From Pseudomonadota bacterium (GTDB lineage Bacteria > Pseudomonadota > Gammaproteobacteria > Burkholderiales > Burkholderiaceae_C), in the NCBI GenBank assembly GCA_040386375.1, contig JAZKFQ010000022.1, positions 30,372 through 94,371 of the forward strand: DNA of 64,000 bases, read 5' to 3'. Each line of letters opens with the position of its first letter. Position 1 is the first letter of the stretch. The notes under the pieces were generated by a model, which was not told the DNA's origin, ran no database searches, and was given only the letters and a program-made list of their open reading frames with translations. The position numbers were made by a program, and so were the translations under genes. This document shows positions 6,604-59,165 of this stretch, one piece after another.

Positions 6604-8082
6604 TCATGCGGGTGCTCCTGAGCTGAGTGCGCTGCGTGCACGTGCCACGCGCTCGGCGGTGATGCGGGCCTCGCCGGCCTGGCGCGCGTCGGCCTCGGCG
6701 CGGTCGCGCAGGCGCTTGGCGGCCGAGATCTGCACCAGCACCGGCTGGGCGCTGACCAGGTCGTTCAGCAGCTGCTGGGCGTCGTCGTCCCAGGGGCTGG
6801 TGGTGGCTTCTTCCAGGCGCGATGGCGTGGCCGGTGCGCGGTCCAGGTCGGTGCCCAGCGGCAGCACATGGAACAGCGCGTCGAACAGCGCGTTGCAGTA
6901 CTCCTGCAGCACGTAGGTGGCGCCGGCATAGCCCATGAACGGCGTGCCCGTGGCGCGGCGGATGATGGCGCCGGGGAAGGAGGCCGGGATGTAGCTGGGC
7001 CGGGGGCCATGGCCCGCGCCGGCTTCGGCCAGATACATGCGCTCGTTGTAGCTGCCGAACATCACCAGCGGCGGCTTGTCGTGCGTCATCTGCCGGATGG
7101 CGGCGTTGTCGGTCTTGGCGCCCGGGATGCGTGGCACGGCGAACTGGCAGGGCAGGCCCAGCTCGTCTTCCAGGTAATGCCGCAATCCCCGTGTGTAGGT
7201 TTCTCCGGCCACCACCGCAAAGCTGGCGGTGCCGAAAAAATCCTGCGTCACCGAGCGCCACAAATCCCACAGGGGCTTGACTGTGGTGTGCTTTTCGCGC
7301 TCGATGAAAGGCTCGGGATCCAGCCCCAGCAGGTTGCCCATGCTGCGCAGAAACTTGGTGGTGCTGTGCAGGCCGATGGGCGCCTGCAGCCAGGGCCGCT
7401 CCAGCGCTTCGCACAGCAAGGGCCCGTACTCGCGGTACAGGTTGATGTTGAGGTCGGCGTCGGCCAGCTGCTGCACATCGGCCAGGTGGCTGCCCAGCGG
7501 GAAGACCATGTTGATCTCGGCGCCGATGCCCTCGACCAGGCGGCGGATCTCGTGCAGGTCACTGGGCAGGTTGAAACTGCCGTAGCAGGGGCCGATGATG
7601 TTCACCCGCGGCTTGCTGCCTGCGGGCCGATCGGCCAGCGGCTTGCGTGCCGGGATGTGGCGCAGCCCGTACTGGGCCCAGAGCCAGAACATGGCGCGGT
7701 TGGCGCACTGCCACTGGTCTTCGTCGATGGTGCGTGGCAGGAAGCGCTGCAGGGCCGTGCCCTCGGGCGTGACGCCGCCGCCGATCATCTCGGCGATGCT
7801 GCCGGTGACCACCACGCTGGGCAGGTCCGGGTCCAGCACCGCATGGGCGCGCTTCATCGCACCTTCGGTGCCTTCGCGGCCCAGCTGCTCTTCGGCCAGC
7901 CCGGTGACGACGATGGGCAACTCGTGCGGCGGCAGGGCGTCGGTGTAGTGCAGCACGCTGGTGACCGGCAGGTTCTCGCAGCCCACCGGGCCGTCGATCA
8001 CCACCTGCAGGCCCTTGATGGCGGTGAACACATAGACGGCGCCCCAGTAGCCGCCGGCACGGTCGTGGTCGAGGACTAGCAT
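6604..8082 (-). CDS. bchZ: Chlorophyllide a reductase subunit Z
   Basis: [42 protein letters not shown]-terminal PCP-red-like WDDDA...[11 protein letters not shown]. Confidence 0.97.
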
Positions 8083-9602
8083 CAGATCATGGCCTCCGCC
8101 TTGCGCTTGGCATGCAGCTTGATCACCTGGCGCTTGAAGTCGGCGCGGAACTCCGGCCGGTCCTTGGGCGTCTCGGTCCAGACCCCCGCCTTGTCGCCCT
8201 GGCCGGCATCGCCGAAGAAGGCGCTCATGGCCTCGAAGCGGTGCTTGTTGGCGATGGCGGCGTTGATCACCGCCGCCAGCGAGCCGGCACCGGCCGGGCC
8301 CATCAGCGGCCGCGCCGAGATCAGGTTGGTGAAATACAGGCCGGGGATGCGCGCTTCCTTGGCGGCCTGCACCACCGGCGTGGTGCCGATGGCCAGGTCG
8401 GGCTGGAATTCATGCATGGCCGCGATGTCCTGTTCCAGGCTGGCCCGGTACTGCACCCGCACACCCTTGGCCTCCAGCCACTGGCGGTCGGCATCGCTCC
8501 AGGGCGTGCGGGGGCAGGCCGTGCCCACGTAGCGCAGGTCGGCGCCACTTTCCACCAGCAGGCGGGCCACGATCAGCTCGCTGCCCTCGTAGCCCGACAG
8601 GGTGATGCGGCCCTTGATCGGTGTCTTGGCCAGCGCCCCGCGGATGGCCGGAAGGATGCGGTTCTTGGCCGCGTCGATCAGGGCCTGGGGCACGTTGGCC
8701 GCGCTGCCGATGGCCTGCAGCCAGGCCTCGGTGCCGTCGTGGCCCACCGGGGCCGAGCCGACGATGGGCCGGCCGGCTGTCTGAAACTCGCGGATGCTGG
8801 CGGTGTAGAACGGGTGGATGGCGGCGACCACGCTGCCGTCCAGCGCGGCATACAGCTCGCGCCACTCCCGGGTGGGCACCACCGGGCCGGCGGCCAGGCC
8901 CATGGGCTCTAGCATCATGCCCAGGATCACCGGGTCGGCCGGGAACATCTCGCCCAGCAGGGTGACCGTGGGCTTGCTGCTGCGGCCGCCCTGCGGCGCC
9001 TGCACCGGGCCGGCTTCCACCTCGGTGCGGGCGTACTTCAGCATGGCGCCGGCCAGCACGTCCTTGGCCTCGGCATGGGTGGGCACGCCGAAGCCCGGCA
9101 CGTCGATGCCGATGATGCGCACGCCGTTGATCTGTTTGGGCAGCAGCTGCAGCGGCACGCCGCTGGCGGTGGGCACGCACAGGTTGATCAGCACGATGCT
9201 GTCGTACTTGTCCGGGTCGGCCAGCTTGAAGGTGGCCTCCCGGATGTCCTCGAACAGCTTGCCGGTGACCAGGCTCTCGCTGTTGAAGGGCACATAACCC
9301 ACGCTGCGGCGCGCGCCGTAGAAATGGCTGGTGAAGGTCAGTCCGTAGACGCAGCAGGCCGAGCCGCTCAACACCGTGGCCGTGCGCTTCATGCGCAGGC
9401 CGACACGCAGTGACCCGAAAGCCGGGCACATGCTCTGCGGCTGGTCGTGCGGGCCCTTGGGATAGTCCTGCGCATACTGCTGCAGCACCTCGCTCTTGCC
9501 GGCGGTTTTCGCGGCGGCCAGCATGGTCTCGGCGCCGGAGTGGCAGCCCAGGCCGTCCTCCTTCAAGGCGGCAGGCACGGCGACGTTCGGTGTGGCGTCC
9601 AT
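8082..9602 (-). CDS. bchY: Chlorophyllide a reductase subunit Y
   Basis: [41 protein letters not shown]. Confidence 0.97.
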
Positions 9603-36031: not shown

Positions 36032-36661
36032 ATGAAGATCTGGAGCGACGCCTGGAGCAATGGCGAAGCCATTCCCCAGCGCTTTGCCGCCGGACGGCTG
36101 GCCGAGGACGGCAGCGTGGCCTTCTCCGACAACCTGAGCCCGCCGCTGGCCTGGAGCGACCTGCCGCCGGGCACGCGGTCCCTGGTGCTGGTGTGCCACG
36201 ACTTCGACGTGCCCAGCAGCGTGGCCGACGTGAACCAGCCCGACCGCGAGGTGCCGGTGGACCTGCCGCGGGTGGATTTCTTCCACTGGCTGCTGGTGGA
36301 CCTGCCGCCCAAGGTGAGCGGCTTTGACGAGGGCCAGTGGAGCCGCGGTTTCACGCCGCGAGGCAAACCCGGGCCGGCCACTGGCGGCCCGGCGCGCCAG
36401 GGCCTGAACGACTACACCGGCTGGTTCGCCGGCGATGCCGCCCACGCCGGGCGTTACTTCGGCTACGACGGCCCGTTCCCGCCGTTCAACGATTCACTGG
36501 TGCACCACTACCTGTTCGCCTTGTATGCGCTGGACGTGCCGCGCCTGGCGGTGGACGGCGACTTCACCGGCACCCAGGTGCGCGAGGCCCTGGCCGGCCA
36601 TGTGCTGGGCGCGGCCACGCTGTCGGGCACCTACACGCTGAACCGACGCCTGCGCGGCTGA
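36032..36661 (+). CDS. YbhB/YbcL family (PEBP/Raf kinase inhibitor-like) protein
   Basis: NLSPPLAW, CHDFDVP, FFHWLLVD, YDGPFPP, HHYLFALYALD. Confidence 0.9.
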   Translation: MKIWSDAWSNGEAIPQRFAAGRLAEDGSVAFSDNLSPPLAWSDLPPGTRSLVLVCHDFDVPSSVADVNQPDREVPVDLPRVDFFHWLLVDLPPKVSGFDEGQWSRGFTPRGKPGPATGGPARQGLNDYTGWFAGDAAHAGRYFGYDGPFPPFNDSLVHHYLFALYALDVPRLAVDGDFTGTQVREALAGHVLGAATLSGTYTLNRRLRG

Positions 36662-37299
36662 TGGACGCCACCCGCCTGGTGGCCATCCGCCACGGCGAGA
36701 CCGCGTGGAACGCCGCGCAGCGCCTGCAGGGCCACCGGGACATCCCGCTCAATGCGCTGGGCCGGCGCCAGGCCGCCACCCTGGGTGCGGCCCTGGTCGA
36801 CGAAGGCCTGGTGGCGGTGGTGGCCAGCGATCTGCAGCGGGCCTGGCAGACCGGGCAGGCCCTGGCCGGCGCGCTGGGCCTGCCGCTGGTGGCCGAGCCC
36901 GGCCTGCGCGAGCGTGGCTTCGGCATGCTGGAAGGCCTGACCCATGCCGAGATCGAGGCGCAGTGGCCGCTGCAGGCGCGGCGCTGGCGCACCCGCGAGC
37001 CCGGCTTTGCGCCCGACGGCGGTGAGAGCCTGGTCGACTTCCAGGCACGCTGCCTGGCCACGGTCGACCGGCTGGCGGCCGCCTACGCCGGCCAGGCCAT
37101 CGCCTTGGTCTGCCACGGTGGTGTGCTCGACGGCCTTTACCGCGCCGCCACCCGTGTGGCGCTGGACCGGCCGCGCAGCTGGGCGCTGGGCAATGCCAGC
37201 ATCAACCGCCTGCTGCACACGCCGCAGGGCCTGAGCCTGGTGGGCTGGGGCGATGTCGCCCACCTCGCCGGCGTGGCCCGTGACGACGCCTCGGCGTGA
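36661..37299 (+). CDS. Histidine phosphatase family protein
   Basis: RHGETAWN, SDLQRAWQT, LRERGFG, CHGG. Confidence 0.9.
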   Translation: MDATRLVAIRHGETAWNAAQRLQGHRDIPLNALGRRQAATLGAALVDEGLVAVVASDLQRAWQTGQALAGALGLPLVAEPGLRERGFGMLEGLTHAEIEAQWPLQARRWRTREPGFAPDGGESLVDFQARCLATVDRLAAAYAGQAIALVCHGGVLDGLYRAATRVALDRPRSWALGNASINRLLHTPQGLSLVGWGDVAHLAGVARDDASA

Positions 37300-37474
37300 G
37301 CGGTCAGGGGCCTGTCTCACGGTGAAGCGGCCTCGTCGGGCAGCTGGACCTGCGGTTGGCGGGCCGACCCCGGTCTGGCCCTTCGCGCGGGCCTGCGGGA
37401 TTGGCCGCTGCGTGCGCAACAAGCCTGGTGCCAAACAAATCACGAACTGCGGCGCCTGAGCCCGCCACGTGGCA

Positions 37475-37501
37475 TCAAGCGCCAGCCAGAGCGGCCGATA
37501 A
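37475..37501 (+). promoter_or_regulatory. sigma28 (FliA) promoter upstream of the pilin cassette
   Basis: TCAAG-N14-GCCGATAA, exact consensus spacing and -10. Confidence 0.75.
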
Positions 37502-37773
37502 ACCGACCACGACCTCCGAGAGGATCTTGGGCCAGGGTCGCAACTCACGCCATGTGACCAGCTCTGGCTGGCGCATGCGCTCGGCTTGTCTCACCACCTT
37601 TGTCCCGTCCCGCCATGAAGCCGTTCAGTCATCTGGAAATGTCGACCCCGGCAGCGCGCGCCACGATCGCGGCATTGCCTGGACTCCGCCGACCCCATGG
37701 AGAAGCTGTCGCGTGCGGCGGCTGCAACCCGGCGCTGCAGACGGGGCGCGGTCATCTCGCGCCTTTGCAGGCT

Positions 37774-38217
37774 GTGCGGTGGGTCAGCCGCGCCAGGCGT
37801 GGGTTCACGCTGATCGAAGTCATGGTCGTGGTCGCGATTCTGGCCATCCTGTCGGCCATCGCGCTGCCGGGATACGGGTCCTACATCACCCGGCAGAAGC
37901 TGGTGGCTGCGCAGAGTGATCTCCAGGCGCTCTCCATGAACATGGAGAACTATCTGCAGAACACCACGCAATATCCGTCGGCATCGGGCAGCATCGACTC
38001 AACGGCCGCGCTGAAAACCACGCTGCCGGGCTGGAACCCTGCAGCCAGCGCTGATTTCCGCTACCAGGTCACGGCGGTGTCCAACAGTGCCCAGCCTCCG
38101 ACCTATACCCTGCAGGCCATTGGCACGACCGGCAATGTGTCGGGCTGTGTGGTGACATTGAGCAGTGCCAACCTGCGCACGTTGGCTGGCTGCAGCGTCG
38201 GCGGCTCCACATGGTGA
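37774..38217 (+). CDS. PilE-like type IV pilin (start uncertain; 37615 or 37639 possible)
   Basis: RRG|FTLIEVMVVVAILAILSAIALPGY; C-terminal Cys pair. Confidence 0.88.
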   Translation: MRWVSRARRGFTLIEVMVVVAILAILSAIALPGYGSYITRQKLVAAQSDLQALSMNMENYLQNTTQYPSASGSIDSTAALKTTLPGWNPAASADFRYQVTAVSNSAQPPTYTLQAIGTTGNVSGCVVTLSSANLRTLAGCSVGGSTW

Positions 38218-38723
38218 CAGGCCCCGTGACGGGTTGCGACGAGCCACAGGCGCGGGTTGCGCGCCGCGCGCATGGATGGACGCTGGTCGAGCTGGCGGTG
38301 GTCCTGGGTGTGGCAGCCTTGTTGTTGGCGTCGGTGGGGCCGATGGGCGTGGCCTGGGTGGACAACGCGAAAAGCCTGAACGCACGGGCGACCTTGCAGA
38401 CTGGCTTCTCGGCCGCGCGCGCGCTGGCACTTCAGAACCCTGGGGGCATCACGCTGAACGGCCCGGCGGCGATTTTGTGCCTGGCCGGCTCCGGTTCGGT
38501 GCGTGTGTATGTCGGCGGATCTTGCCCTGGATCGGGCGCCGCCGTCTGGCAGGGCTCGATGCCGTCCGGCACACAGCTGACGATCGGCGGCGTGTTGTGG
38601 CCACCCTGCATCAGCCTGAACAACCGGGGGCAGCCGATGGCAGGCGCTTCCGGCTGCAGTACAAACCTTCAATTCACTCTGACAGTGGGACAGGCCAATG
38701 TCGCGAACACCACGCTCTACTGA
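38211..38723 (+). CDS. FimT/FimU-like minor pilin
   Basis: AHG|WTLVELAVVLGV, ARALAL motif, FNxxG-like LNNRG. Confidence 0.8.
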   Translation: MVTGPVTGCDEPQARVARRAHGWTLVELAVVLGVAALLLASVGPMGVAWVDNAKSLNARATLQTGFSAARALALQNPGGITLNGPAAILCLAGSGSVRVYVGGSCPGSGAAVWQGSMPSGTQLTIGGVLWPPCISLNNRGQPMAGASGCSTNLQFTLTVGQANVANTTLY

Positions 38724-39114
38724 CCGGCGCCGAGCCATTGCGGGCTTCATGTTGATCGAAGCCGTGGTGGGCACGGCGGTTGTCGGTCTCGTCTGTGCCG
38801 CGTCGGTCTATGCGGTCGGCCGCAGCGCCAATGCACAACACAACGCCGACCTGCGCGCCCAGGCGGTGGAGCAACTGGCGAACCGGCTGGCAGCCCAGGG
38901 TGTCGCCTTGTGCAACACATCGTCCGAGACCATCACGGTTGCCGGCCAGGTTGGCACGGTCTCGGTCACCTGCTCGCAGCAAAGCGCCACGGTGACCTTG
39001 CCCGGCGGCGGGCTTGCGCCGGTGGTGTTGTCGGGGCAGTTCCTGATCCAGGCGGCCGTCGACATGCCGTTGCTCGGTGGCCGGATCACTGTCTCGTCGG
39101 CCGGGGGCAGCTGA
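38698..39114 (+). CDS. PilV-like minor pilin
   Basis: IAG|FMLIEAVVGTAVVGL, RAQAVEQL. Confidence 0.75.
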   Translation: MSRTPRSTDRRRAIAGFMLIEAVVGTAVVGLVCAASVYAVGRSANAQHNADLRAQAVEQLANRLAAQGVALCNTSSETITVAGQVGTVSVTCSQQSATVTLPGGGLAPVVLSGQFLIQAAVDMPLLGGRITVSSAGGS

Positions 39115-39118
39115 GACC

Positions 39119-39769
39119 ATGGACAGACAGCGCGGCATGTCTCTGGTCAGCCTGATGGTCGGCATGCTCATGCTGATGGGCTCGGCTGGGGCGTTGATGG
39201 TGTCCTACCGCTCCGTGGTGCAGAACGGCGTGGCCGCGTCTGCGAACGCCAAGCGCAGTACCGAAGTGGCGAGTGGCCTGCTGGCGGCCATGTTTGAGCT
39301 GCGACAGGCAGGATTTGGGCAAGGTGCCAGCAATGCCAAGCCCGGCGGCGCGGTCAACGTCAACCTCGTCTTGCTCAACGGCGCTGCGATGTCAGGGGCG
39401 TCGCTTGCAGGCGCGGCCCAAGCCGTCGGCACCACGGTGGTTTCTGGGAATGCGCTGGTCTGGGACACCGGCATCAACGGATCGGTCCAGTGCAGTGCGC
39501 TGGTCGGCACCGCAGCGGGCGCGTTGCTGCGCCTCGGCCCTGTGCCCTGTGCCCAAGCCAGCGCCTGGGGCAGCCTCAACTGGGGCAGCCCCACCCAGAT
39601 CATCACGATCGGGGCTGGTGCGGTCTCGATGCAGGTGCAAAAGACCAGCTGTTGGCCCTATGGCCTTGCCCCGGCTGCCAGCGCATCGATTCCGAGCCTT
39701 GTCCAGGTCACGGTGGTCGGCACCGGCACCGGTGCCGCGTCCGCCTGCCTGGCCAGCCTGCCCAACTGA
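39119..39769 (+). CDS. PilW-like minor pilin
   Basis: QRG|MSLVSLMVGM, ELRQAGFG. Confidence 0.78.
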   Translation: MDRQRGMSLVSLMVGMLMLMGSAGALMVSYRSVVQNGVAASANAKRSTEVASGLLAAMFELRQAGFGQGASNAKPGGAVNVNLVLLNGAAMSGASLAGAAQAVGTTVVSGNALVWDTGINGSVQCSALVGTAAGALLRLGPVPCAQASAWGSLNWGSPTQIITIGAGAVSMQVQKTSCWPYGLAPAASASIPSLVQVTVVGTGTGAASACLASLPN

Positions 39770-39785: not shown

Positions 39786-41462
39786 ATGCAGAAGTTTCAA
39801 TGCCACACCACTGTTGCCAAGCGCCGACGCCAGCGCGGCGCAGCCTCGCTGCTGCTGCTGCTGCTGGCGGCGATGGGCCTGATGTCGGCCACCTTCAGCA
39901 TGATGGCGTCGACCCGCAATCAGCAGAAGATGCAGTTCGCTGCCCACACTGCGACGCAGGCCCACATGCGGGCCTGGGCCGGCGTGACGGCGATCTCGCA
40001 GGCGGTCAAGGGTGCACTGACCCAGTCCGGCGTCACATCGTCCAACCTGGCCACCAAGTTGGGCACGGCAGGTTCCCCCGTGTCGGTCAGCGGTCTGACG
40101 GGCGTGTCTGCCCTGTACCGCGGCGCTGATGCCAACGGCTACCTGCTGTTCGATGTCACCGGGGCCAGCGCCGGCGCCACCGGCACGCTGCGGGTCGCGA
40201 TCCATCTGCTCGGTGGCGCTGGCACGTCGTCAGCAACGTTGTCCGGGCCGTTGCAATTGACAGGCAACACCACCGTCAGCGGCAGCGCGTCCTTCACCGG
40301 CCTGAACACGGCATTGGCCAACATCACAGTCAAGAGCGGCACGCTGAGCCTCAGCGGCTCAGCGAGTGGGTTCGGCACGATCTGTTCGACCGGCGACCTG
40401 ACGATCTCGGGCTCGGTCGACGTCGAGACGGCCTGCAGCAACAGCAATGTCGCGGTGAGCGGCAGCTCCTACGCCAAAACGGCCGTTGCCTCCGGCACCA
40501 TCGACGCCAGCGACAAGAACGTGACGACCCGGACCATCAGCAGCGGACCGGCGTTCCCTCCCCCGCCGTTGCTGGCCATCGACGCCTACGTGCTGCGCTC
40601 GCAGGCGAACCTCACCTTCACCGGGGTCGACGCGGCAGGCAATGTGATGGTCACCGCCCGCAAGATCGCCGGTGTGACCGACGGCGCCTACTTTCTGGCC
40701 AGGAGTGCTGGCGCCCCCGATTTCCTGTGCGCCAGCGTCGCCGGCACGAACTGTGTCAATCCGATCACGCGGGTGTGCTACGGCGCCAATCCCAGCAACA
40801 GTTGCTTTGCCTACAGCAGCAGTGGCGGGCAGTGGACAGTGACCGCGCAGTCGATGCTGCGGCTGGCAGTGGCCTTCAACGGGTCGTTGCAGCTGTTGGA
40901 CGGCCGCTTCATCAACACCATGATCGCCACTGGCGACATCGCGGTGGCCACCGGGGTGACCGTCTATGCGCCCAACATCGTGGGCGACGGGGCATGCCAG
41001 GGTGCCGGCTATGCGGGCAGCGAAGGCAGCGCCCCGGTGGGTACCCTGACCAGTTACCAGCTGTCTACGACCTACATTCCCACGCAGCTGTGCACCGGAT
41101 CGGGCGCGTCGGCGGTGTCGTCGGCCAGCTCGCTGAGCAATGTGGCGCTGTACGCGGGCGGCTACTCGGGCGCCAACCAGACCGGCTTCACGGGCGGCAA
41201 TGTCAGCTTGTCGGGCAATGCCGAGGTGTATGGCAATGTGCTGGCCGGCCAGTACATCTCCGCCGGTGCCTCCACGATGATCAGCGGTTCCATCGTGTCC
41301 GGGCAGCAGGGCGGGGCCACCAGCACCGGCAATGTCCTGGGCGGCCATTCCAAGGTCAGGAACTTTGGCGCCACCTCGTTCAGCCACATCAGCGTCCCTT
41401 GCGTGGCCAGCAGCTGCGCCACGCCAGCGGCCTACAACATCGCGTGGGTGGCGCCGATCTGA
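39786..41462 (+). CDS. PilX-like prepilin fused to a long Ser/Gly/Thr/Cys-rich putative adhesin region (558 aa)
   Basis: RQRG|AASLLLLLLAAMGL lacking Glu+5, A...AWAG, then repetitive LSGNAEVYGNV-type strands and 10 Cys in the mature part. Confidence 0.75.
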   Translation: MQKFQCHTTVAKRRRQRGAASLLLLLLAAMGLMSATFSMMASTRNQQKMQFAAHTATQAHMRAWAGVTAISQAVKGALTQSGVTSSNLATKLGTAGSPVSVSGLTGVSALYRGADANGYLLFDVTGASAGATGTLRVAIHLLGGAGTSSATLSGPLQLTGNTTVSGSASFTGLNTALANITVKSGTLSLSGSASGFGTICSTGDLTISGSVDVETACSNSNVAVSGSSYAKTAVASGTIDASDKNVTTRTISSGPAFPPPPLLAIDAYVLRSQANLTFTGVDAAGNVMVTARKIAGVTDGAYFLARSAGAPDFLCASVAGTNCVNPITRVCYGANPSNSCFAYSSSGGQWTVTAQSMLRLAVAFNGSLQLLDGRFINTMIATGDIAVATGVTVYAPNIVGDGACQGAGYAGSEGSAPVGTLTSYQLSTTYIPTQLCTGSGASAVSSASSLSNVALYAGGYSGANQTGFTGGNVSLSGNAEVYGNVLAGQYISAGASTMISGSIVSGQQGGATSTGNVLGGHSKVRNFGATSFSHISVPCVASSCATPAAYNIAWVAPI

Positions 41463-41530: not shown

Positions 41531-41986
41531 ATGTACCGACCGATCCGATCGATCCGCCCCGGCCACGCCGCAGGCTTGCACCGCCGCGGCTTCACCTTGA
41601 TCGAGTTGCTGATCGCCGTGGCGGTGGCGTGCTTGCTGGCAGCCCTGACCTACCCCAGCTACCAGTCGCAGCTGGCCAAGGGCCGGCGCGCCGACGCCAG
41701 GCAGGCGCTGCTGGAGCTGTCGCAGAAGATGGAGCGCCACCACACCGAGCGCGGCACTTACCTGGGCGCCGCCGTGGGTGCGGGCGGCCTGTATCCGGGC
41801 CTGAGCAGCGGCGGCCACTACAGCCTGGCCATCAGCGCACAGACACCGGACGGTTTCATGCTGCGTGCCACGCCGCGCGGCGGACAGGCCGACGATGCAT
41901 GCGCCAGCTTTCTCTATGACCAGCTGGGCGAGCAGCGGGTGAGCAGCGAGGCCCGGCTCAGCGCGGCCAGTTGCTGGCAGTCGTAA
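41531..41986 (+). CDS. pilE: PilE type IV pilin
   Basis: RRG|FTLIELLIAVAV, YPSYQSQLAKGRRADA, QADDACASF, CW C-terminus. Confidence 0.9.
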   Translation: MYRPIRSIRPGHAAGLHRRGFTLIELLIAVAVACLLAALTYPSYQSQLAKGRRADARQALLELSQKMERHHTERGTYLGAAVGAGGLYPGLSSGGHYSLAISAQTPDGFMLRATPRGGQADDACASFLYDQLGEQRVSSEARLSAASCWQS

Positions 41987-42000
41987 CGGCCGAGAGCGCC

Positions 42001-43068
<1,068 letters not shown>

Positions 43069-43105
43069 CCAGTGATTGTCCACCGAACCGGTGGTGCCGG
43101 CGTGC

Positions 43106-58580: not shown

Positions 58581-59165
58581 ATGTTTCAAGTTTCCGACCC
58601 GCGCTGCCGATCACGCGCGAACCGAGCCGGTGCTGTTCAGGATGTGCTGCGTCGGATGGCGGCCGTGCTGTGGTCTGCCGCGGTGCTTGCCGGTTGTGCG
58701 CCCGCACTCGATTGGCGGCAATTCCAGCCCGAGGGCTGGCCGCTGGTGATGGCCTTGCCGTGCAAGCCGGCCAGCCAGCAGCGCCAGGTGGTCCTGGCAG
58801 GCCAGGCGGTGGCACTGCGCATGGTGGCCTGCAGTGCCGATGGCCACACCTTCGCCCTGGCCTCGGCCGATCTGGGCGACCCGTCGCGTGTGGGGCCGGC
58901 GTTGCAGGCGCTGGGCCAGGCGGCCCAGGCCAATGTGCGGGCCCAGGTCGAGAGCGAGCAGCCGGCCGCGGTGCCCGGCATGACGCCCAACCCTGAAGCA
59001 CGGCGCTGGCGCCTGCGCGGCCAGTTGCCCGATGGCCAGGCGGTGGCCGAGCAGGTGCTGGTGTTCGCTCATGGCACCCGGGTGTTCCAGGCCAGCCTGA
59101 TCGGTGCGCAGGCCGACGACGCACGCGCTGCGCCGTTCTTCGACGCCCTCCAGGTGCTGCCTTGA
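58581..59165 (+). CDS. Conserved hypothetical lipoprotein (start uncertain: 58581, 58644 or 58656)
   Basis: Lipobox VLAGC followed by APALDWRQ..., FFDAL C-terminus. Confidence 0.75.
   Translation: MFQVSDPRCRSRANRAGAVQDVLRRMAAVLWSAAVLAGCAPALDWRQFQPEGWPLVMALPCKPASQQRQVVLAGQAVALRMVACSADGHTFALASADLGDPSRVGPALQALGQAAQANVRAQVESEQPAAVPGMTPNPEARRWRLRGQLPDGQAVAEQVLVFAHGTRVFQASLIGAQADDARAAPFFDALQVLP

Follow-up and report, generated by a model that had tools for sequence, protein, structure and literature searches.

In proteobacteria, FliA (sigma28) transcribes the late flagellar genes, type IV pili are placed under RpoN/PilR, AlgR or Vfr, and the two circuits are usually described separately. A model for Xanthomonas oryzae keeps the route from FliA to fliC apart from that from RpoN2/PilRX to the type IV pilus (PMC7170775), and the fimU-pilVWXY1E minor-pilin operon of Pseudomonas aeruginosa is described as controlled by FimS-AlgR and Vfr, with FliA unmentioned (PMC8787478). 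Sigma28 control of type IV pili is already known in the Actinomycetota: in Rubrobacter radiotolerans and R. xylanophilus, which are unicellular and non-sporulating, the sigma28-family factor WhiG controls a type IV pilus cluster, its targets being pilus and cyclic di-GMP (c-di-GMP) genes and its predicted promoters being backed by mapped transcription starts (PMC8325347); WhiG regulons that include pilus genes have also been predicted in other Actinomycetota (PMC13595943). In the zoospores of Actinoplanes missouriensis, flagella and surface-attaching type IV pili are both produced via FliA-family sigma factors (PMC6597397, as summarized in PMC8325347). Here we examine a stretch of 64,000 nucleotides from a betaproteobacterial genome (the window; contig JAZKFQ010000022.1, positions 30,372 to 94,371 of the forward strand), in which a sigma28-type promoter motif at 37475-37501 (+) precedes a minor-pilin cassette of six genes, named g1 to g6. 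The motif is very probably a genuine sigma28 promoter, and it is likely, judging from the sequence and its relatives, that FliA transcribes the cassette from it. What is new here is a putative, canonical FliA promoter that, in a flagellated betaproteobacterium, heads interchangeable minor-pilin cassettes and is conserved with their locus.

The comparison with the WhiG-RsiG systems of Actinomycetota concerns mechanism only, as the host here is a betaproteobacterium and the closest relatives of the cassette and of its flanks are Burkholderiales. The likeness to Rubrobacter lies in a sigma factor of the flagellar clade, with the same promoter specificity, that serves pil genes together with enzymes of c-di-GMP turnover. 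Rubrobacter is, however, not known to be flagellated, and its sigma factor has apparently been repurposed, under the control of RsiG and c-di-GMP, whereas the present host keeps a full flagellar regulon, in which only accessory pilus parts (minor-pilin cassettes and an MshE-type ATPase) have sites and the major pilin has none. Actinoplanes, as far as that summary goes, resembles our case in that its swimming dispersal cells co-express flagella and pili from sigma28-family promoters; it differs in being Gram-positive, with several FliA paralogues and a whole pil cluster involved, whereas the present host is Gram-negative and has a single strong FliA and cassettes only. The class 3 FliA promoters of Escherichia coli and Salmonella share the -10 element GCCGATAA and the TAAA/TCAA-N15 geometry, and fliA is likewise present here; the target in our case is a minor-pilin cassette, however, the leader reaches 272 nt, and dependence on FliA is predicted. 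The fimU operon of P. aeruginosa is similar in content, comprising pilin-like priming and tip subunits in one operon that ends in pilE (PMC8787478, PMC5979040). In relatives of the same genus, although not in the focal genome, this locus is occupied by a FimT-PilV-PilW-PilX-PilY1 version of the operon (G019, for instance, has a PilY1-like gene); the focal cassette, by contrast, lacks PilY1 and has a PilX-like protein of 558 amino acids, and its upstream gap (37300-37773) contains no AlgR box CCGTTCGTC at up to one mismatch.

The published FliA consensus pairs TAAA with GCCGATAA (PMC8325347), the correct spacing being TAAA-N15-GCCGATAA. In the window, a -35 element TCAAG (37475-37479, +) is followed by the 14-nt spacer CGCCAGCCAGAGCG and by the -10 element GCCGATAA (37494-37501, +), which agrees with the classical sigma28 -10 at 8 of 8 positions; the -35 element is the same as the genome-wide consensus cTCAAG (26 sites), and all 13 of the 13 specified bases of the motif are intact. 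A preceding interpretation made from the letters of the window (the sequence-only reading) had proposed this motif, and it is indeed there, in non-coding DNA and aimed at the cassette: it lies within the 474-nt gap 37300-37773, in the same direction as the pilin-like genes, and is unique in the window even when two mismatches are allowed. No frame of the gap has a coding-like GC content at third codon positions (GC3), the values being 0.66-0.72 as against 0.80-0.94 in neighbouring genes. That reading had also reported the lack of a correctly oriented sigma54 site, and we likewise found none of the GG-N10-GC type scoring at least 7/11 on the + strand of 37250-37800; scans of 37200-37900 for sigma70-like promoters, intrinsic terminators and Rfam families found none. 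Its general premise, that type IV pili are typically under sigma54/PilR or sigma70 and that FliA drives late flagellar genes, is roughly right according to the literature (PMC8787478, PMC7170775).

The host is flagellated and photosynthetic (puf-carrying), with a genome of 5.84 Mb and 70% GC that encodes fliA at C54:43752-44420 (TIGR02479 FliA_WhiG, 276.7 bits against a cut-off of 189.6), the only strong FliA match found in it. Genome-wide, TCAAG-N14/15-GCCGATA occurs at 22 sites, nine with N15 and 13 with N14, so that the focal spacing (TCAAG-N14, equivalent to TCAA-N15) is the commonest form (13/22). Across the whole genome the same two halves occur nowhere at spacings of 10-13 or 16-19 and four times altogether at spacings of 20-40; with the halves swapped there are no matches in the genome, and six genomes simulated with a third-order Markov model yield none. 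From the off-spacing controls about 0.4 sites would be expected by chance, as against the 22 observed. Behind the TCAAG sites lie genes for flagellin, cheY-cheZ, a second cheZ and several chemoreceptors (methyl-accepting chemotaxis proteins), as well as for GGDEF/EAL, HD-GYP, HD_5, ComFB-like and DUF1631 proteins, and looser T.AA variants stand before motA (TCAAC) and cheD (TGAAG). The TCAAG type is a variant of the class 3 FliA promoter found in pseudomonads and betaproteobacteria. On a position matrix the focal site reaches 28.3 bits, which places it 16th in the genome, and by this score it is indistinguishable from the promoters of fliC (28.9), motA (29.7) and cheY (26.6); the matrix was built from 26 sites selected by pattern, which makes the scores of those sites partly circular, while the spacing and simulation controls are free of this circularity. 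Elsewhere in the window, a sigma28-like TCAAG-N15-TGCCGATCA at 58586-58613 (+), of 20 bits, lies about 40 nt before a probable lipoprotein open reading frame (ORF), whose signal-like sequence MAAVLWSAAVLAGC falls within ORF 58581-59165.

The focal cassette is not the only pilus unit of the host that is headed by such a site. When every pilin-like gene of the genome was scanned for its best upstream sigma28 site, the top score in the genome (32.6 bits) belonged to TCAAG-N14-GCCGATAT at C14:78495-78521 (L056 2496-2521), in front of a second minor-pilin cassette of pilE-, fimT-, pilW-, pilX- and pilV-like genes on contig C14. There only 8 nt separate the end of the -10 box from the ATG, so that a leaderless or nearly leaderless transcript is implied. 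On the reverse strand of contig C29 (rc 7161), a site of 30.1 bits stands 8 nt before an ORF of 130 amino acids without a Pfam domain (rc 7196-7588), which is followed by a T2SSE/MshEN ATPase of 625 amino acids (rc 7628-9505); this unit looks like a pilus extension ATPase (MshE-type, MshEN being of the c-di-GMP-binding type) within the FliA regulon. A weaker site, TCAAG-N15-TCCGATAA (C16:38628-38655, 15.8 bits), falls in the gap before the pilin gene of an MSHA-like pilus cluster (C16:36511-45848) that comprises an ATPase, a platform protein, the pilin, a protein of 1444 amino acids and several pseudopilins. No sigma28 site was found upstream of pilA (the gene for the major pilin), of a third minor-pilin cluster (C6) or of the pseudopilin operon of the type II secretion system. 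Of roughly 25 strong sites, 3 head pilus units where about 0.1 would be expected; with transcription units counted approximately, this gives a rough, inferred P of about 1e-4.

The locus can be followed through the genus, in which orthologues of the upstream histidine phosphatase gene (62-83% identity) are succeeded by a minor-pilin cassette, and in 18 genomes an orthologue of the g6-type pilE (51-71% identity) occupies the syntenic position, 4.2-6.9 kb downstream of the phosphatase gene. The cassettes in between differ: as far as their genes were read, most start with FimT- and PilW-like genes, the C14 type is found at this locus in three relatives (G002, G030 and G024), and the focal genome has a rare type without PilY1. 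Across the genus, the stretch between the phosphatase gene and pilE with ruvB holds interchangeable minor-pilin cassettes. Compared as DNA, the gap (37300-37800) gave only short, spurious matches to 40 relatives, and conservation of the -10 box across the genus was seen only once the flanking genes served as anchors. With these, exact GCCGATAA was found between phosphatase and pilin gene in 10 of the 14 relatives with a readable gap (G011, G005, G022, G025, G008, G028, G004, G015, G010 and G007), and near matches in three more (GCCGATTA in G013, GTCGATGA in G002 and G030); in five further relatives the retrieved flank contained neither a pilin nor a box. In the nine relatives with both an exact box and a recognizable first pilin, the box stands 67-99 nt before the codon of the cleavage glycine and the sequence around it is otherwise diverged, while an 8-mer of this composition is calculated to occur about 0.0015 times per 200-nt gap. 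The -35 element reads TCAGG in G008 and G015, and their sites score 19.5 and 24.3 bits. In the close relative G007 (L106, G007:C31, oriented 2139-2730) there is no cassette at this locus at all: the phosphatase gene is followed by the GCCGATAA box, 12 nt, the g6-type pilE, which has a degenerate class III signal (G/VTLPD; the slash marks the cleavage position here and below), and ruvB.

Other cassettes in the genus have sites of the same kind. The C14-type cassette was compared with 15 orthologues in the genus, and 10 of these retain a site of 14 bits or more at a constant position, 33-49 nt from the glycine codon, in each case the best match in its 3.4-kb locus. Cassettes that contain PilY1 (in G019, G012, G007 and G018) have GGCTCAAG-N14/15-GCCGA about 95 nt before the ATG; in two of them the cluster reads pilE-fimT-pilV-pilW-pilX-pilY1 behind TCAAG-N15-GCCGATGC (L026 of G019, L030 of G012). 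In these two, an exact ACCGTTCGTC, which we take to be the AlgR-box consensus of P. aeruginosa, lies about 35 nt upstream of the sigma28-like -35, an arrangement that suggests combined control by an AlgR-like regulator and FliA. Since the same box is kept across the genus despite the swapped pilin genes, these pilus parts are probably co-expressed with swimming, and the focal cassette is probably switched on together with it. The claim of the sequence-only reading that a set of pilus genes is wired into the flagellar regulon thus finds support in the score of the site, the presence of fliA, the sites at other pilus units and the box in the genus.

The cassette itself consists of six co-directional genes, overlapping or closely spaced, which had been described as six pilin genes; six genes do follow the motif, and five of them are pilin-like, the remaining one being the 558-amino-acid PilX-like gene. 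The first, g1 (37774-38217, +), encodes a PilE-like pilin (N_methyl 2.8e-10, ComP_DUS 1.1e-8; leader MRWVSRARRG/FTLIEV; GC3 0.81). Its start is most likely GTG 37774: a start at ATG 37615, which would give a leader of 63 amino acids, was rejected because the GC3 of the extension (0.70) is non-coding and the leaders of the orthologues are short. The start of g2 (38211-38723, +), a FimT/GspH-like pseudopilin with a weak N_methyl match and a class III signal (G/WTLVEL) detected by regular expression, overlaps the stop of g1. It is followed by g3 (38698-39114, +; PilV-like minor pilin, G/FMLIEA) and g4 (39119-39769, +; PilW-like minor pilin, G/MSLVSL, with Ser for Glu at +5), both without a Pfam match, and by g5 (39786-41462, +), the PilX-like protein of 558 amino acids, which has a long, repetitive, Cys-containing extension rich in Gly, Ser and Thr and no Pfam domain. 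The last gene, g6 (41531-41986, +; ComP_DUS 2.3e-22, GC3 0.88), encodes a PilE-like pilin and forms the conserved 3' end of the locus. Pfam N_methyl matches g1, g6 and, weakly, g2, and the class III motif is present in g1, g2, g3 and g6; no PilY1-like ORF (von Willebrand factor A domain or beta-propeller) lies between g1 and g6. The left border, also conserved, is the histidine phosphatase gene (36661-37299, +; Pfam His_Phos_1 6.3e-60), and on the other side lies a convergent gene (42001-43083, -) whose translation is recognizable as RuvB. Downstream of the promoter, the + strand thus holds only the cassette genes before ruvB is reached. GC3 rises from about 0.80 in g1-g4 through 0.87 in g5 and 0.88 in g6 to 0.92-0.94 in the flanking genes, a gradient that would fit a replacement cassette, g1-g5, which was acquired more recently or evolves fast. 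None of 36 genomes of the same genus has g5, the gene specific to this cassette, and its homologues are rare, 29-44% identical and always placed behind the same four pilin-like genes.

Five-gene cassettes orthologous to the focal one were found in 11 cases: two Silvimonas species, a Rubrivivax metagenome-assembled genome (MAG), Pelomonas nitida, two Herminiimonas MAGs, Comamonas aquatica, Tepidimonas, the genome G041 and the metagenomic contigs L058 and L062. Conservation of the motif in front of such cassettes had been proposed as a check on the sequence-only reading, and it holds for L062, whose g5 is 44% identical and which has TCAGG-N14-GCCGATAG (20.5 bits) 42 nt before the ATG, in a gap that otherwise has no DNA similarity to the focal one. 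It fails for the other cassettes, and this is the first of several observations that weigh against FliA control of the focal cassette: 10 of the 11 have no site of at least 14 bits upstream of g1. As the site is present in only one of the 11, sigma28 wiring does not travel with the cassette type, and the predicted promoter tracks the locus and the genus instead. Within the genus, too, relatives other than G008 and G015 have TTGGG or TTTGG as the -35 element at the box, with scores of 7-13 bits. Some 25 nt upstream of this -35 position, genus relatives (L107-L121) share the conserved sequence CACA..TTGACGCAAAGCGTTACC, which is absent from the focal gap and suggests an additional regulator in them. 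Furthermore, fliA is present in nearly all reasonably complete genomes of the genus, so that its presence or absence is uninformative here. The weakest point is the length of the leader: 272 nt separate the -10 box from the GTG of g1, the longest distance among sites with an immediately assignable gene, and a nearer, unseen promoter or attenuation within the leader could dominate.

This last point leads to the rival that we take most seriously, although we regard it as unlikely, namely that the FliA promoter is real and contributes little, most transcription of the cassette coming from an unrecognized promoter nearer g1 (one example would be a sigma70 promoter that needs an activator, comparable to AlgR and Vfr at fimU of P. 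aeruginosa) or reading through from the phosphatase gene, with the sigma28 transcript a short leader RNA or attenuated. Read-through is possible because there is no terminator after the phosphatase gene, which favours this rival, as does the distance of 272 nt, unusual for a regulon in which most sites lie 7-100 nt from the start; the leaders of fliC (222 nt) and cheY (144 nt) are long too, however. The closest orthologues of the cassette, in Pelomonas and the Rubrivivax MAG, are without a sigma28 site and have in common, upstream of g1, an AT-rich sequence, TTGCAT(G)TAACA(A)T(A)TGT (L098 3900-3960, L099 3850-3900), perhaps a promoter or operator of another kind. Against a second promoter stands the failure to detect a sigma70-like promoter, a terminator, an Rfam element or an unusually stable structure in the leader (predicted fold against shuffles, z = +0.78), although scans for promoters are unreliable where the DNA has 68% GC. 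That the box is retained in different species where the locus begins argues that it serves the pilin genes.

Two further alternatives concern the promoter's target and its reality. The roughly 265 nt between 37508 and 37773 would have room for a small RNA or a small ORF (there is an in-frame ATG at 37615), and the promoter might drive such a product with the cassette merely lying downstream; we consider this quite improbable, as no frame there has a coding-like GC3 (0.70 in the extension from ATG 37615), the gap shows no Rfam match, terminator or excess folding energy, and it is not conserved at the DNA level in the 40 relatives. Still more improbable is that the motif has no function, being a match that arose by chance or has decayed. 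Shuffled versions of the 64-kb window do give at least one loose match (up to two mismatches) in 22 of 100 cases, but this is a weak test, and for the exact site chance is very unlikely because 22 such sites exist where about 0.4 are expected and none arose in simulation; the intact 13 bases and the box kept at the syntenic position in the genus also argue against this alternative.

We therefore return to FliA as the likely source of cassette transcription and propose the following course of events. FliA stays inactive until the hook-basal body has been completed and FlgM exported, FlgM being the anti-sigma factor expected in this host. FliA polymerase would then start about 7-9 nt past GCCGATAA, near 37508-37510 by the usual sigma28 geometry, and read through a predicted non-coding 5' leader (37508-37773, +) of about 265 nt into g1-g6. 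These genes would supply a minor-pilin priming or tip set without PilY1, and neither a fibre nor a motor; the large PilX-like g5 would be a probable tip, distal or adhesive component. As FliA is freed only after the hook-basal body, this set would be made in cells about to swim, co-expressed with flagellin, stator, chemotaxis proteins and c-di-GMP enzymes, and swimming cells would bear pili primed with it. Since the cassette brings neither fibre nor motor, its effect would be on which tip complex the pilus machine carries during swimming, and we infer that its purpose may be surface contact by swimming cells. It is possible, if somewhat doubtful, that FliA in this genus selects a tip or priming set for a separately expressed pilus machine, rather than turning the pilus on or off, at a locus that is a hotspot of cassette exchange: the interval would be filled by a FimT-PilVWX-PilY1 type, a C14 type, the rare type without PilY1 or none, with the sigma28 promoter persisting throughout.

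If FliA control is borne out, it would offer a swimming cell a simple transcriptional route to pre-arm its pili before first surface contact, the step that has been studied in the surface sensing of P. aeruginosa, Vibrio cholerae and Caulobacter. Under the more doubtful reading of tip selection, the tip would be co-expressed with an ATPase of the MshE type (c-di-GMP-binding) and with many c-di-GMP enzymes, and any adhesive tip acquired at the locus would automatically be expressed in the swimming, surface-seeking state. With one promoter position before several swapped cassettes, the locus would amount to a natural experiment on minor-pilin and tip diversity.

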